This document shows positions 22,935 through 29,435 of a stretch of 32,000 nucleotides of DNA, one piece after another. Under the pieces are notes generated by a model. It was given only the letters and a program-made list of their open reading frames with translations, was not told the DNA's origin and did not search any database. The DNA comes from Candidatus Heimdallarchaeota archaeon (GTDB lineage Archaea > Asgardarchaeota > Heimdallarchaeia > Heimdallarchaeales > Kariarchaeaceae). The stretch is from NCBI GenBank assembly GCA_030149205.1, contig JASBSB010000001.1, positions 660,001 to 692,000 of the forward strand, in the 5' to 3' direction. The position numbers were made by a program, and so were the translations under genes. How positions within the stretch are numbered: position 1 is the first letter of the stretch; every line of letters begins with the position of its first letter.

Positions 22935-22993
22935 TGTCGATTGAGTATTTGCAGACTAGAACTTTTATTAACTCATTCTACTTCACATGATTT

Positions 22994-25834
22994 GTGAATT
23001 CTTTACGAGCAGGTGATCAGTATCTTGATGAGAGAGCTGAGGGAGTAAAGGAGATCATTAATGAACTAGTCCAATCAATTCTAATCGAACAGGCAGGACG
23101 TGAGGTGTTTCAGAGAGAAGAAACCATAGTTCTTCTGATTTCTAATTATACAGGTCAGGAAGGCTGGAGAGAATTTGTACAAGTTGAAAATGAGTTACAC
23201 ACAATCCCTTTGTTTCAGAAGTCCCTGATCATTCGCTCGTTAATTATCAAATTTGAGTTATTTGAATTGTTGCAGCAGGTTATACAGATATTGCAGCTTC
23301 AAGAAAACCGAGAGACCGGGTTAAAATCACTGGTTGAGCATGTGCATAAATTAGGGATAAATGACTCAGGGTTTGTTGAGATGCTTCACAAGTCACAATT
23401 TCAACTGATTTTTAGTTCTCATCCATTAGGGTTGGTTAGAACCAGTCATCTTAAGCTTCTCAAACAGACATCTATTATATTAGAAAAATTGCTAACTCAG
23501 GAGTTCAGCCTTTTTGAAAGAGAAAGAGAGATATCGAAACTACACGCTCTCTTGGTTCTAATTTGGAATTCTGAGGAAACATTCAGTGATCATTTTGAGG
23601 GCAATGAGCTTCAAAGGATCAAATATACTCAATTTTTTTTCAAAGAGACTATGATTTCAACTGTCACTAATTTTTATACCTCTCTAACAAATCTAGTTTC
23701 GGCAAAACTAGCAAGCGGGTATGGAGAGGGCAGAAAAAAGACCTTCAGTCTACCCCTGTTTCTAACTTTAGGATATTTGGTTGGGTCAAACATCAGTACC
23801 GATAGATTACTACCAAGTGATCACCCAATAAAGATAATTCTACTGCAAAAACGGCTTATTTTAAAAGACTATATTCAAGAGATAACTCAACTTCTTTCAA
23901 TTTTTTCAGTTAACTCTCATTACATGAAGGTAACCAGAGATTTAGACCTCAGTATTGAACAAGACAAGACAGAATTTCAAGAGTTTACATTTAGCACACA
24001 GGGCCTAAATATAGATGAGCCATATCGACAGAAGCTGGACTTTATTAGGTTAAAGTTGGAAAATACATTAAATTACACAGGACATATTGCAGAGGAGCTA
24101 GGATTAGAAAGAACAAAAATTGGGTATAACCCTCTAAAGATAGTGAGGTTAGGTGGAAAATACTATAAGAATTCTAAAGAGTTCTTGAAGGATTTAAAAC
24201 TAATAAATCATTCCCTCAAAATTAATAAAGGGAAATCCTTGTCAAACGAGTATATCCTCCCTCTTATGAATAAAGTAAGGGTTTTTGGATTTCATCTCGC
24301 ATCCCTAAATATACTGATAAACTCAAAATTTGTAACAAGTACATTTGATGACATAGCCACTCATCTTTATCCTAACAAGGACTCTCAAAGTCAGATTTTT
24401 GTAGAATCTGAGTTACGGAGTGTGCGTCCTCTCGGTATAGACAGTTTAATGTCAAGAAATGTTCTTAAAAGAGATTCTATTGATTTATTGGCACTACTCT
24501 TATCGATTAGATCCTGTGCCACGTACCTTTCTAGTTCGTCAGTTAATTCAATAGTCCTGACAAATTTAAAATCTGAATCTAGTATCTTTAAGCTTTTACT
24601 TCTATTAAAAGAGATCGGCTTGATAGAGGTTCAAGATGAAAGGGTTAGTAGAGTTGATGTGGGTATTATCATATCTATTGACACACCTGAGCTACTTTAT
24701 TCATCAGGTACATTCATATCTAATCTTTTTGAAAATCAGACATATAAGGAGTTTATCAAGAGAGGAGGGGGCATTCAAGAGGTTATGTTCGATTATACTG
24801 AACTCTCTAAGACTATAGGTTTGCTCAAAACAAGTGTAGAGTCTTATAAATTTCAACAGAGCTTATCCCTAATTGGCCAAAAACATGGAGTTAGATTTAG
24901 GTTCTTTCATGGAAGAGGAGGAGCAATTTCAAGAGGGGGGATTCCATCAAATTTTGCAATTCGAAGCTTACCTCTGGGAAGTTCGAGATTGCTAAAATTC
25001 TTAGAACAGGGGGAGTTATTTGAGAGCAAGTTTCTAAAGGGGGAATTGGCTTTTCAAGACTTAGAAGACGTGTTTCATGGAATTATTGTAAAGCGGTTGG
25101 ATGATAAGTTAATGAAGGGGAAATCTGGGGAGCTGAGTGAGAAAAAATTAGAAAAATTAGAATATCTAGCTGAAGTTGTCAATGGTAAATACAATGATCT
25201 TCTGGCTACAGATGGGTTCTTTGAATTTTTTGCTCAAATTACTCCAATCGAGCTACTAAACAAATTCTTCATTAATGAAGAGAGCAAAGAACTACCCAGA
25301 GATGTTGGGGAATTAAATCAAACAAATGGTAAACTTTGGATGACTGCATGGAATCATAACAGACTTATGATACCAATTTACTTTGGACTCGGTACGGCAA
25401 TCGAAAAATTTACAAGAAAATATGGGAAAGGAGAGCTACAGAATCTCTATAATTCCTCTAGGATATTTGCAACCTACATTGACCATGTGAACATGGTTCT
25501 AACCAAGGTAAACCTAAAGGTAGCACAGCAATATTTGTTACAAGCAAAAGACACACAGAACTCCAGAAGATTTTATAAAGAAATTACTACTGAATTTCAC
25601 CTTATTCAAAAATCATTCCAGTCTCTTAGAATTAATTCACTGACTGAACCAACTATTCAAAAACAAATCAACGAAAGAAACAGTCTTGTGGAACCATTAG
25701 AATTGATATTCACACATATGTTTAAGCTTTGGAGAACAGATTCTACAGTCGATCCACATGAAAAATCACTTATTGAACTAGATCTTCAAAGACTGCTTCG
25801 TGTTATAATGAATGGGTTGAGAAACACAGGATAA
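22994..25834 (+). CDS. ppc: Bacterial/plant-type phosphoenolpyruvate carboxylase homologue with a degenerate active site
   Basis: SSHP, EPYR.KL, FGFHLASL, QEVM, FHGRGG.ISRGG.P, EQGE, TPI, GLRNTG C-terminus; 946 aa uninterrupted ORF with a GTG start. Confidence 0.9.
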   Translation: MNSLRAGDQYLDERAEGVKEIINELVQSILIEQAGREVFQREETIVLLISNYTGQEGWREFVQVENELHTIPLFQKSLIIRSLIIKFELFELLQQVIQILQLQENRETGLKSLVEHVHKLGINDSGFVEMLHKSQFQLIFSSHPLGLVRTSHLKLLKQTSIILEKLLTQEFSLFEREREISKLHALLVLIWNSEETFSDHFEGNELQRIKYTQFFFKETMISTVTNFYTSLTNLVSAKLASGYGEGRKKTFSLPLFLTLGYLVGSNISTDRLLPSDHPIKIILLQKRLILKDYIQEITQLLSIFSVNSHYMKVTRDLDLSIEQDKTEFQEFTFSTQGLNIDEPYRQKLDFIRLKLENTLNYTGHIAEELGLERTKIGYNPLKIVRLGGKYYKNSKEFLKDLKLINHSLKINKGKSLSNEYILPLMNKVRVFGFHLASLNILINSKFVTSTFDDIATHLYPNKDSQSQIFVESELRSVRPLGIDSLMSRNVLKRDSIDLLALLLSIRSCATYLSSSSVNSIVLTNLKSESSIFKLLLLLKEIGLIEVQDERVSRVDVGIIISIDTPELLYSSGTFISNLFENQTYKEFIKRGGGIQEVMFDYTELSKTIGLLKTSVESYKFQQSLSLIGQKHGVRFRFFHGRGGAISRGGIPSNFAIRSLPLGSSRLLKFLEQGELFESKFLKGELAFQDLEDVFHGIIVKRLDDKLMKGKSGELSEKKLEKLEYLAEVVNGKYNDLLATDGFFEFFAQITPIELLNKFFINEESKELPRDVGELNQTNGKLWMTAWNHNRLMIPIYFGLGTAIEKFTRKYGKGELQNLYNSSRIFATYIDHVNMVLTKVNLKVAQQYLLQAKDTQNSRRFYKEITTEFHLIQKSFQSLRINSLTEPTIQKQINERNSLVEPLELIFTHMFKLWRTDSTVDPHEKSLIELDLQRLLRVIMNGLRNTG

Positions 25835-25897
25835 TAGAAAAGAATTTTTGATATAATTCGTGGGATTGGATATAAAAATTTTAAGCATTATATTATA

Positions 25898-26425
25898 TTG
25901 ATCAGTTACTTGTCTAAAAAAGCAAAGAAAACCAAAAATACACAAGCAGACAAAAATAGTTCCAAGAAGAGTGAACCACAAAATAATTTTTTCCAAAACT
26001 TCTTGTTCCTCACCCCCCCACAGAAGCTGTTTTTAACAGTGTTATCTATCTTTGTAGTATTTCAAATATGGAGTGCTGTGGTACTGGGGATTGTGATTGC
26101 TGGTGGAAGAAAAGTGGATATATTAGCAGGTAGTTTGTTCATTATAGTCTTTGTCGGTGGAATATTGGCCTGGTATGGATATTTCAATAATAAACCTCCC
26201 TTCCATCAGTTTATATATCCGACACTGCTGGCAAATCTTATTCTTTCATTTTCTTTTAACCCAAACAGTTTGCAAATATCATCTGTCAATTATTTTTACG
26301 TTCTTTACACCTTGTTCATGATTTATTTATTGATTAGATATCCCATCCCTGTCTCTCCATATTCTTCAATCTATAGAAGACCTAAAGGAAAAGCAAAGAA
26401 ACAACGATTTTTAAGACCGAAATAA
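25898..26425 (+). CDS. Hypothetical four-helix membrane protein with basic termini
   Basis: Hydrophobic segments flanked by K/R-rich ends; no family recognised. Confidence 0.65.
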   Translation: MISYLSKKAKKTKNTQADKNSSKKSEPQNNFFQNFLFLTPPQKLFLTVLSIFVVFQIWSAVVLGIVIAGGRKVDILAGSLFIIVFVGGILAWYGYFNNKPPFHQFIYPTLLANLILSFSFNPNSLQISSVNYFYVLYTLFMIYLLIRYPIPVSPYSSIYRRPKGKAKKQRFLRPK

Positions 26426-26538
26426 CCTTTGATTCAATTGAAATAAATAGTCACATAATTAACCTAACAATTTTGTTAAAAATAAAAAAAACCTCAATAA
26501 GATAACAATTCATATGTTTATTCGAACTTTAAGAAAAT

Positions 26539-28068
26539 TCAAAACTTGGATTCTTGGGATTTCAAACGAGAGATGACCATCCCAGTCAGATTGACAGGTT
26601 TGTAAGTATTTGCAACCTGTACTGCGTTAGAAAGCTTTGTCTCAGAGTTGGAGTAGATGGTGAACAGCGGATCACCCTCTTTGATGAAAGCCCCAAGTCT
26701 GGTGTGAATAACCATTCCACTCTCTTTCACAGAAGGTGTGCCGGCTGCTGAACATATTTGCTTCACCCCTCTGTTTGAGATTGATTTGACGTAACCATCA
26801 TGAGGGGCATAAACAGTCTGAGAATATGAACCGACAACAACCTTCTCAGAGGAAACTGTGGGGTCTCCGCCCTGAGCCTCAATAATTTCTTTAAATTTCT
26901 TTAATGCTTTACCACTCTTAATTAAATCCGCAGCCAGATTTAATCCTTTATTCTCACCAGCAAGACCTCCCATTTCGAGAAGATTTCCAGCAAGTTCAAT
27001 TGATTTGTTGTAGGCTAAATTGGTTCTTTTTCCTTCTAAGATCTCTAGTGCCTCTTTTGCCTCTAAAGCTGGTCCGATGTTTGAACCTATCGGTTGATCA
27101 CCCATTGTCATGACTGCCTCAACATTTATTCCAACTTTGCGACACAGACCAATCAGTTTATGACCAAAATCTAATCCCACTTTTGTTGAAGGCATTTTTG
27201 TGTATTTTCCTGTTGGGATATCAATAAGCAAATTGTTGATGCCCATTGCGACTTTGGTAGAGATTATAGCAGCAAGCATCTGATCCTGCGGATCAATATC
27301 CAAAAACTTCTTCACATTGACCACTATCTCATCCATTGGACTAAGCTTTAAAGGCCCATTATGAACTATCATGCCACGTACCTTAGGCGCAAGTTCTGTT
27401 ATCTCTTCCGGGGTAAAATTCACCTCTGCGAGCACGTTCATTGAATCAGCAGTTCCAGATGGAGAGGTAATTGCTTTACTGCTGGTTTTAGGTATAAGTA
27501 AACCCGCTGCTGCAACTACGGGGACAATAATCAATGACACCTTATTTCCGGGTACTCCTCCGATAGAATGTTTATCAAAGGTCTTTTCTTGAAAATCAAA
27601 TTGTGTTCCATATTCTGCCATACTGGTTGCAAACGACTCTAGCTCTCGATCTGTGTATCCTCTAAATTCACTGGTAAGGGCAAAGGTAGCAATTTCTAGG
27701 TTTGTGTAGACACGTCTAGAAATGTCCGCAACTATTGAATGTACCTGTTTAGTCTTCCATGGTTCTCCATGTATCCTGTTTTTCACATGATCAAAACTTT
27801 GAGGGGTTCTCCTATTGAAAACCACCACCACATCCCCATCCTTCACATTCAACCAATTGGCATCACGTTGAGAGATTCCTACGACATTATCCTCTATTAT
27901 CCCTTCTGTCACTACGGGAGCGGCAGAAAAAAGTTTATCGACAGTTTCATTTTTGATTGCCAATACTGCAGTGTGCTTAAATTTCAACTTGGATGCTGTG
28001 TTATGAGACATCATGACGATAGGCTCTACTGATCGAATATCTAAAATTTTAATGGGGAGGTTAATCAT
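26539..28068 (-). CDS. deoA: AMP (nucleoside monophosphate) phosphorylase
   Basis: N-terminal extension domain, DKHSIGGVPGNK, IPKTSSKAITSPSGTAD, PIG..IGPALEA.EAL, GDPLFTIYS. Confidence 0.93.
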   Translation of the reverse strand: MINLPIKILDIRSVEPIVMMSHNTASKLKFKHTAVLAIKNETVDKLFSAAPVVTEGIIEDNVVGISQRDANWLNVKDGDVVVVFNRRTPQSFDHVKNRIHGEPWKTKQVHSIVADISRRVYTNLEIATFALTSEFRGYTDRELESFATSMAEYGTQFDFQEKTFDKHSIGGVPGNKVSLIIVPVVAAAGLLIPKTSSKAITSPSGTADSMNVLAEVNFTPEEITELAPKVRGMIVHNGPLKLSPMDEIVVNVKKFLDIDPQDQMLAAIISTKVAMGINNLLIDIPTGKYTKMPSTKVGLDFGHKLIGLCRKVGINVEAVMTMGDQPIGSNIGPALEAKEALEILEGKRTNLAYNKSIELAGNLLEMGGLAGENKGLNLAADLIKSGKALKKFKEIIEAQGGDPTVSSEKVVVGSYSQTVYAPHDGYVKSISNRGVKQICSAAGTPSVKESGMVIHTRLGAFIKEGDPLFTIYSNSETKLSNAVQVANTYKPVNLTGMVISRLKSQESKF

Positions 28069-28256
28069 CAAAGAAAATTGGTATTCTAGTATTTGAATTG
28101 TAGCTTATGAAAACAATGTCAATTAAAAGTTTTAAGCTTATTTAATCGAATGGCTAGATAAAAACCTATTACGTTGTTAAGATTCTCAAAGAAAAAGACG
28201 CAAATTTATTTGTGATATTCATCAACTGTATATAACTAGCTTTCTGGGTTAGATAA

Positions 28257-29435
28257 ATGATAGAATTAAAGATTCCCAAAAATACTGATGTTTTCAAGCC
28301 AAATTCTCCTGGAGAGAAGTTGAACTCAGGCGAATTATCAAAGCGAATCAAGGAATCAATAATTATTCAAGAACTAAAGGAAAAGCCCACCTTGCTTATA
28401 ATCAATGATCATCATAGATCTACACCAACCAAGGTTATTGCAGATATCTTGCTTGCGCAAGATGACCTCAGAATAGAAGAGGTAATTATTGCCACAGGTA
28501 CCCATAAAAGTCCAAAAATAGATGAACTTCGTGACCTTATAGATGGTCAGCTGTCCAACCTTCAGCTTACAATCCATGATGGACATTTACCCCTTGAAGA
28601 ATATGTATTTTTGGGATACACCAGTCGTCAAACACCGATATACATTAACCCAATTGTCATTAAATATAAACAGATCCTTGCAATAAATTCGGTTGAACCC
28701 CATTATTTTGCAGGATTTACTGGTGGATTTAAATCAATAGTACCTGGACTTGCTTCGATCACCACGGTCGAAAAAAATCATTCTTGGGCTTTAGATCCAA
28801 ATTCTCTCCCAACGAAAGTCCCAGGAAATCCTCTTCAGGATGACCTATGGGAAATTTATGAAAAATTGGTTGATCATCACCTATTGGGTATTCAATTGGT
28901 AAGCGTTGGTGAAGATATTTATGAGATAGATATTGGAGAGTTAAAGGAAGCATATTTTAACGCATTGAACACATCATTGAGTATCTTTGCGCATAAAGCA
29001 GATGTTGAGTACGATATCATAATTTCAATTGTGAACCCTCCATTGGACAGGAGTCTCTATCAGGCACAAAAGGGTTTGGAGAATGTCCGAGGAGCTCTAA
29101 AAAAAGGGGGCACAATTATCCTTGTAGCACGATGTACTGAGGGAATAGGAAATGATGCCTTCTATACCACACTAAAAAAATATGATACTGTGGATGGAGT
29201 GATTGTTTCTCTTAATCGTGAAAATTACAGATTTGGGGATCATAAGGCACATAAGTTTGCGACATTAGCGAAGTACTCAAAATTATTTATCCTTTCAGAT
29301 TTAACAGTTGAAGAAACAGAGAACGTTTTTGCAAAAAAAATCTCACTAGAAGAAGTAAATGAGTTGTTGGCCTCCACAGAGGATAAAAATGTAGCTCTTG
29401 TTCTTGATTCTGGGATAACTGTCCTTTACAAATAG
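28257..29435 (+). CDS. larA: LarA-family nickel-pincer-dependent racemase/epimerase
   Basis: DHHRS, ATGTH, EPHYFAGFTGG.KSIVPG, NH, LYQAQKG, KKGG.II. Confidence 0.88.
   Translation: MIELKIPKNTDVFKPNSPGEKLNSGELSKRIKESIIIQELKEKPTLLIINDHHRSTPTKVIADILLAQDDLRIEEVIIATGTHKSPKIDELRDLIDGQLSNLQLTIHDGHLPLEEYVFLGYTSRQTPIYINPIVIKYKQILAINSVEPHYFAGFTGGFKSIVPGLASITTVEKNHSWALDPNSLPTKVPGNPLQDDLWEIYEKLVDHHLLGIQLVSVGEDIYEIDIGELKEAYFNALNTSLSIFAHKADVEYDIIISIVNPPLDRSLYQAQKGLENVRGALKKGGTIILVARCTEGIGNDAFYTTLKKYDTVDGVIVSLNRENYRFGDHKAHKFATLAKYSKLFILSDLTVEETENVFAKKISLEEVNELLASTEDKNVALVLDSGITVLYK

Follow-up and report, generated by a model that had tools for sequence, protein, structure and literature searches.

What does the product of a gene do when the active-site residues of its enzyme family have been replaced and the gene itself has been kept? 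This question is raised by a locus in the metagenome-assembled genome (MAG) of a Candidatus Heimdallarchaeota (Asgard) archaeon (3.3 Mb, 12 contigs; G000). The locus lies within a stretch of 32,000 nucleotides (contig JASBSB010000001.1, positions 660,001 to 692,000), which was analysed as a whole and is referred to as the window. The gene encodes a protein of 946 amino acids (P0001, the window protein) that belongs to the phosphoenolpyruvate (PEP) carboxylase (PEPC) family. An earlier note, made from the letters of this DNA, had read the protein as a maintained non-catalytic relative of PEPC and not as a decaying pseudogene. That claim is supported by a live paralogue in the same genome, by losses of the same class in orthologues, by purifying selection and by an intact predicted fold, and the comparisons support a maintained protein that would be neither a PEP carboxylase nor a decaying pseudogene. 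The protein is probably a non-catalytic, ligand-binding protein rather than a working enzyme or a dying gene.

22994..25834, forward strand: gene of the window protein, 946 codons, GTG start directly after an in-frame TGA

The open reading frame contains no internal stop, and the Pfam profile PEPcase (PF00311) matches the protein at 403.5 bits (cut-off 22.4) from residue 20 to 946 on profile positions 6-919, confirming the unbroken 946-codon PEPC-family frame reported earlier. The match to PF00311 is full-length, by which the protein is a homologue of PEPC of the bacterial and plant type. On the NCBIfam equivalog model for PEPC (PRK00009/NF000584), for which the cut-off is 815 bits, the window protein scored 381 bits, the other dead copies described below 428-496 bits and the canonical copies in the same genomes 850-883 bits. 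The window protein is only 27-30% identical to any other sequence compared. PpcA is the usual PEPC of archaea. No gene for this archaeal type (PF14010) was found above the cut-off in the window genome or in the five relatives searched, and the best PF14010 signal in the window genome is a 23-bit cross-hit on the canonical PEPC copy. The barrel of PpcA (3ODM) is related only at a distance (Z 18.0 across 463 residues), and PpcA is not a member of the same family. Identity with PpcA was rejected on the lack of a PF14010 match above the cut-off and on the long bacterial type of the window protein.

To describe the active site, residue equivalences were taken from a MAFFT L-INS-i alignment to E. 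coli Ppc and independently from an HMMER alignment to maize PEPC, and the two alignments are concordant at every motif of the window protein. The conservation reference was a joint alignment of 72 canonical PEPCs, which had been retrieved by a profile search against 1.84 billion representatives. In E. coli numbering, we take H138, R396, E506, D543, K546, R581, R699, R703/R704 and R713 to be the catalytic and PEP-site residues, among which E506 and D543 are presumably the Mn2+/Mg2+ ligands, R396, R699 and R713 the arginines that bind the phosphate of PEP, and R703/R704 part of a mobile loop. We also take E433/R438 to form a salt bridge between subunits of the E. coli enzyme. The motif of the aspartate/malate inhibitor site is R587/K773/R832/N881, which corresponds to R641/K829/R888/N964 of the Flaveria enzyme (PMC3586729). 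The motifs of the window protein are as follows.

23414..23425, forward strand: SSHP, remnant of TAHPTE; H143 is equivalent to H138 and is kept in the six full-length members of the dead clade defined below
23783..23806, forward strand: GSNISTDR, replacing the universal GGDRDGNP (D252N, R253I)
24308..24325, forward strand: NILINS, replacing D(I/L)RQ(E/H)S; R396 has become L441
24410..24436, forward strand: ELRSVRPLG; E473/R478 are equivalent to E. coli E433/R438 and are invariant in the dead clade
24671..24685, forward strand: ISIDT, replacing PLFET; E506 has become D563
24791..24814, forward strand: DYTELSKT, replacing GYSDSxKD; D543 has become E603, and K546 is kept as K606
24905..24940, forward strand: FHGRGGAISRGG, the glycine-rich loop, intact, with H639 (H579), R641 (R581) and R647 (R587, of the Asp/malate motif)
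25271..25294, forward strand: INEESKEL, replacing the GSRPxxRR mobile loop; R699 has become E763, R703 E766 and R704 L767
25322..25339, forward strand: TNGKLW, replacing LRAIPW; R713 has become N778
25493..25510, forward strand: MVLTKV; K838 is equivalent to K773 of the Asp/malate motif, kept in 7/7 dead copies
25670..25684, forward strand: NERNS; R895 is equivalent to R832 of the Asp/malate motif, kept in 7/7
25817..25831, forward strand: C-terminal LRNTG; N944 is equivalent to N881 of the Asp/malate motif, kept in 7/7

The residues that define a PEPC are thus divided in the window protein: the metal ligands E506/D543, the arginines R396/R699/R713, the R703/R704 loop and GGDRDGNP are lost, and H138, K546 and the glycine-rich loop with R581/R587 are present, as is the complete four-residue inhibitor motif in the form of R647/K838/R895/N944. 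H138, D252, R396, E506, D543, K546, R587, R699, R703 and R713 are invariant in the 72 canonical PEPCs, and R581 and R832 each vary in one of them. Because the replaced positions are invariant in this set, the substitutions of the window protein lie far outside the normal variation of the family. Both alignments agree on every substitution that the earlier note had listed, and the residues it had listed as kept (H138, the glycine-rich loop, K773, R832 and N881) were found in place. Its further claim, that the active site was lost selectively with retention of the effector site, holds for the effector site and does not hold in the sense of sole retention, since H138, K546 and R581, all of them on the note's own list of catalytic residues, are kept too.

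In a scan of 40 relatives and in the profile search of the representatives, six further sequences were found to have suffered losses of this class, in line with the reading of a maintained protein in the earlier note. The resulting group of seven, here called the dead clade for the state of its active-site residues, consists of the window protein P0001, G003_C207, G001_C25, P0035, G002_C182 (= P0038; partial), G007_C77 and P0036. R396, E506, R699, R703 and R713 are lost in all members, most of GGDRDG is degenerate, and D543 is lost in six of the seven. R396 is replaced by L/V/V/V/I/S, E506 by D/Q/G/R/S/S/G (D in the window protein) and R713 by N/D/N/N/T/D/N across the clade, and the position of D543 reads E/T/V/V/N/N/D (E in the window protein). 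Since the replacing residues differ between members, these sites appear to be under relaxed constraint and not to form a new catalytic set. K546 and R581 are retained in all members and H138 in the six full-length ones, and R587, K773, R832 and N881 are retained in 7/7 dead copies, with no stops in the full-length copies.

The balance between loss and retention was also counted over whole alignment columns. In canonical PEPCs, 77 columns show a conservation of at least 95%. The dead copies retain 24 of these without exception, a further 24 are missing from all of them or from all but one, and the other 29 show a mixed pattern; at a threshold of at least 85%, 43 of 146 columns are kept in every dead copy. 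Retention of all four inhibitor-motif columns, which had been named beforehand, has a probability of ~0.007 on this basis, a value that is indicative only, as N881 itself lies below the 85% threshold of the column set. Within the clade, 99 columns are invariant among the six full-length copies, and 11 conserved positions are clade-specific, such as I31, R36, Q40, K409, K414, N787 and W913. The clade is small: at 50% clustering, only four dead-copy representatives scored above 660 bits in the profile search, a range in which the canonical P0037 is found as well, and all dead copies that could be placed come from one Heimdall family.

The profile search also returned a protein of 1011 amino acids, P0098, which apparently lies outside the dead clade and carries E506Q, K546R, R703T and a gap at R713. 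Its active site may have eroded independently. Three PEPC-family hits have long N-terminal extensions, P0063 (1321 amino acids, match from 404), P0140 (1932 amino acids, match from 972) and P0145 (1180 amino acids, match from 254), and are possibly fusion proteins.

The earlier note had suggested looking for a second, intact ppc gene in the genome. Such a gene was found on contig C8 (G000:C8:58883-61687); it encodes a canonical PEPC of 948 amino acids (P0034) with all catalytic motifs intact, which scores 927 bits with Pfam and 883 bits with NCBIfam and is 27% identical to the window protein. Five genomes with a dead copy (G000, G001, G002, G003 and G007) were checked for a canonical PEPC. Such a copy is also present in G001 and G002, and none was found in the genomes of G003 and G007, which are 89% and 80% complete, respectively.

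In a quick IQ-TREE run (LG+C20, 40 sequences), the seven dead copies cluster together (SH-aLRT 99), with the canonical PEPCs of their archaeal order as the sister group and a support of 99 for the union. No other terminal branch in the tree is as long as that of the window protein, at 2.09 substitutions per site compared to 0.57 for the canonical copy, and the dead copy evolves about 3 times faster than the canonical copy. The dead copy arose by duplication of the lineage's own bacterial-type PEPC within Heimdallarchaeia; the exact point of duplication in the tree may be distorted by long-branch effects. The orthology of the seven loci does not depend on the tree alone, because a gene for a membrane protein directly downstream, described below, is common to all of them.

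To determine whether selection acts on the dead copy, two kinds of comparison were used. Close strains of the window organism are represented in two metagenomes from other studies, one from a hydrothermal vent and one marine. Of the 12 best-supported strain differences within the window gene, 11 change a third codon position without altering the amino acid, and the remaining one is I608L. As ~22% of the possible single changes are synonymous, such an outcome has a probability of ~5e-7; the strain read depths are low, and sequencing errors would not favour synonymous sites. This count was used because dS is saturated in every orthologue pair, which leaves the NG86 ratio undefined. Between G001 and the P0035 organism (73% amino acid identity), dN of the dead copy is 0.17-0.20 with saturated dS, which equals the dN of the neighbouring phosphopantothenate synthetase gene in the same pair (0.18-0.21) and is lower than that of a neighbouring protein of 200 amino acids. 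Across two orthologue pairs dN is 0.17-0.33, again with saturated dS. All full-length clade members have remained open over 927-956 codons in AT-rich DNA. The dN/dS check that had been suggested therefore came out as purifying selection, with 11/12 synonymous strain differences and dN far below saturated dS, and this selection acts on the dead copy across the clade as well as within the lineage of the window organism.

The structure of the window protein was predicted with AlphaFold2 from an alignment of 65 sequences, giving a model with a pLDDT of 89.7 and a pTM of 0.91. Notably low confidence is seen only at the extreme N-terminal end, at positions 375-379 and at positions 763-766, where the former arginine-rich mobile loop lies (pLDDT <50). 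The model superimposes on E. coli PEPC (1JQN) with a VIA Z of 39.6 and an rmsd of 2.4 Å over 846 residues, on maize 6MGI with a Z of 41, and on maize and Arabidopsis PEPCs with a Z of ~40; Foldseek matches of the model to PEPCs have TM scores of 0.83-0.89. The structural comparison with the E. coli and maize enzymes that had been proposed thus gives a fully PEPC-like fold, and according to the model the whole PEPC architecture is preserved in the window protein. Compared to bacterial and plant Ppc (EC 4.1.1.31; PF00311; 1JQN/1FIY, maize 1JQO), the window protein is a member of the same family with a full-length fold and shares with it the FHGRGG..RGG loop, H138, K546, the C-terminal RNTG and the Asp/malate motif. 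Unlike Ppc, the dead clade is without both Mn2+ ligands (at the level of the clade), R396/R699/R713, the R703/R704 loop and GGDRDG.

PEPC is a textbook allosteric enzyme. On balance, we favour the interpretation that the window protein is a selectively maintained, catalytically dead PEPC paralogue which would still bind a C4-dicarboxylate and act as a regulator or sensor. The protein would no longer carboxylate PEP. A C4-dicarboxylate of the aspartate or malate type would be bound in the old inhibitor pocket and would trap the glycine-rich loop, as happens in the T state of real PEPC, and the ligand-dependent conformational state would then be passed on. The acting form might be a tetramer of the protein itself or a mixed tetramer with the live PEPC, and it might cooperate with the downstream membrane protein, which has four predicted transmembrane (4-TM) helices. 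A more specific version, in which an Asp/malate-sensing dead PEPC either retunes anaplerotic flux in mixed tetramers or signals to the 4-TM protein, is offered tentatively, and we rather doubt it.

Several points weigh against the interpretation of a C4-dicarboxylate-binding regulator. The binding of a ligand, the oligomeric state and the lack of activity are all inferences. With H138, K546 and R581 kept, the former active centre might be where the retained function resides, and structural requirements may explain the retention of R587, R832 and the C-terminal tail, which hardly vary across PEPCs as a whole. Both metal-ligand positions of the window copy carry conservative swaps (E to D and D to E), and weak metal binding by this copy alone is conceivable. 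The failure to find a canonical copy in two of the five dead-copy genomes argues against an obligate partnership with a live PEPC, and if the absence from G003 and G007 is real, it rules out an obligate hetero-oligomer. Finally, the membrane protein exists without a PEPC-like gene in four genera, so that the link between the two genes may be one of synteny only.

Some of these observations would fit a neo-functionalised enzyme, in which H138, K546, R581, R587 and the glycine-rich loop serve a metal-independent reaction or act on another carboxylate or phosphate substrate. Such an enzyme could account for the retention of H138, K546 and R581 across the clade alongside the Asp-site residues, for the strong purifying selection and for the 11 clade-specific conserved positions. 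However, the positions once used in catalysis differ freely from member to member without any new conserved polar residue among them, neither of the metal ligands and none of the phosphate-binding arginines is left, and the 11 clade-specific positions are scattered, mostly over the N-terminal helices and not at the barrel mouth as judged by sequence position. We consider a new enzymatic function unlikely.

The gene downstream of the dead PEPC leads to another explanation, in which the PEPC-fold protein is mainly a partner (regulator or anchor) of a membrane protein and the Asp site is kept for the stability of the fold only.

25898..26425, forward strand: small 4-TM membrane protein of 175 amino acids without a Pfam family, directly downstream of the dead PEPC

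The gene for the membrane protein lies directly 3' of the dead PEPC in 7/7 loci, with a gap of 4 nt in two of them, an adjacency that is suggestive, but no proof, of a functional link. The protein is 134-175 amino acids long across the loci and was modelled as four TM helices. The family has invariant P, H, Y, R and P residues and a KPPFH loop and is restricted to one Heimdall family; no informative family was found for it in Pfam, in the ESM Atlas or in a fold search of AFDB clusters. A basic C-terminal tail (YRxPQ followed by a K/R-rich stretch) occurs only in the copies beside a PEPC-like gene, and this sequence pattern hints at co-adaptation of the membrane protein with the dead PEPC. Both the adjacency and the tail speak for a membrane scaffold. 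Against it, four further genera of the family have the membrane protein but no PEPC-like gene, and there it is found beside a Trm112-like Zn-ribbon/methyltransferase-like protein of ~210 amino acids; the G000 counterpart of this Zn-ribbon protein is located at C4:697377-697910, ~11.5 kb away. Moreover, the seven loci are all close kin, and the adjacency may be inherited synteny. A complex prediction of the full PEPC-like protein with the cytoplasmic tail of the membrane protein (130-175) gave a score of 0.00 with a partner pLDDT of ~42, which is not evidence either way. That the protein is mainly a membrane scaffold seems improbable to us.

A working but very divergent PEP carboxylase would agree with the predicted full-length PEPC fold, with the acidic residues D563 and E603 at the metal positions and with the retention of H143, K606, R641 and R647. 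Against it, the arginines R396, R699, R703 and R713, invariant in 72 canonical PEPCs, have all been lost together with the universal GGDRDG, and the acidic residues of the metal site are missing in the other clade members. In addition, the NCBIfam score is less than half of the equivalog cut-off and the genome has a canonical copy as well, and we regard a working PEPC as very unlikely. A decaying pseudogene still open by chance, to which the longest terminal branch (2.09 versus 0.57) and the identity of at most 27-30% to anything else might point, is hardly credible and was rejected because of the 11/12 synonymous strain differences, the dN far below saturated dS and the open frames (946 codons in DNA of 35% G+C in the window, and open in the full-length orthologues), to which the confidently predicted intact fold is added.

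For a catalytically dead PEPC paralogue with a retained dicarboxylate site, as favoured here, partial precedents exist. Plant Class-2 PEPC is a hetero-octamer of plant-type and bacterial-type subunits in which one paralogue alters the malate sensitivity, and the bacterial-type PEPC (BTPC) of plants is reported to serve the complex in catalysis as well as in regulation (PMC3010082, PMC13172252). As in plant Class-2 PEPC, two divergent PEPC paralogues occur in one organism; unlike plant BTPC, the window protein has lost catalytic residues, and the live copy was not found in 2/5 genomes. By analogy, plant Class-2 PEPC would be the nearest precedent and a model for a PEPC-fold regulatory subunit. 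Prozymes, such as the AdoMetDC prozyme of trypanosomatids, are dead-paralogue regulators for which activation by heteromerisation has been demonstrated. They share with the dead clade an origin as a duplicated enzyme, the loss of catalytic residues, selection and the presence of a live paralogue, and they differ in fold and pathway and in that activation within a heteromer is a hypothesis only for the dead PEPC. Neither the PEPC family nor the concept of a pseudoenzyme is new; their combination is undescribed in the literature searched, where no paper describing a PEPC-derived pseudoenzyme or an inactive PEPC paralogue was found.

If the protein does sense a C4-dicarboxylate, it would be a first case of the PEPC allosteric module being reused as a stand-alone metabolite sensor. 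In the dead clade, the allosteric pocket would have become separated from the catalytic site by natural means, which could help in tracing how a signal from aspartate or malate is transmitted within the PEPC fold. The clade may also represent a metabolite sensor or regulatory subunit of a new kind in Asgard archaea, to which eukaryotes are more closely related than to any other archaea. Genome annotation is affected as well. Pfam-based annotation would label the dead copies as 'phosphoenolpyruvate carboxylase', and metabolic reconstructions would then wrongly credit the organism with anaplerotic CO2 fixation. This error would arise for G003 and G007, because the dead copy is the only PEPC-family gene found there.

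The remaining features concern the locus itself. The wider block common to the window and its relatives contains dCMP deaminase, LarA-like and AMP phosphorylase-like genes, and the neighbours in the window include Pelota/eRF1-like and AMP phosphorylase-like genes. Upstream of the PEPC-like gene, a candidate promoter element was read by eye.

22963..22970, forward strand: TATA-like box TTTTATTA, ~24 nt upstream of the GTG

The placement of TTTTATTA is consistent with a possibly leaderless or near-leaderless mRNA for the PEPC-like gene. A similar A/T-rich element is seen at ~25871-25879, before the membrane-protein gene. The two genes may have separate promoters in the window genome; in relatives they can be as little as 4 nt apart.

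Part of the locus is present a second time in the genome.

25720..26352, no strand assigned: 633-bp segment duplicated on G000:C11 with 96% identity (L016:980-1612, opposite strand)

The duplicated segment comprises 115 nt from the end of the PEPC-like gene, the spacer behind it and 455 nt from the start of the membrane-protein gene. In the C11 copy, the membrane protein runs into a new tail that ends in a zinc ribbon (PF13240), and an orphan PEPC-like remnant of 40 codons lies upstream. In addition, a contig from the hydrothermal-vent metagenome joins window position 25897 to 29283 with 19 other letters between, skipping 3385 nt and thereby omitting the membrane protein, the AMP phosphorylase-like gene and most of the LarA-like gene. 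With only 21 letters on its shorter side, this jump may be an artefact or a strain rearrangement.

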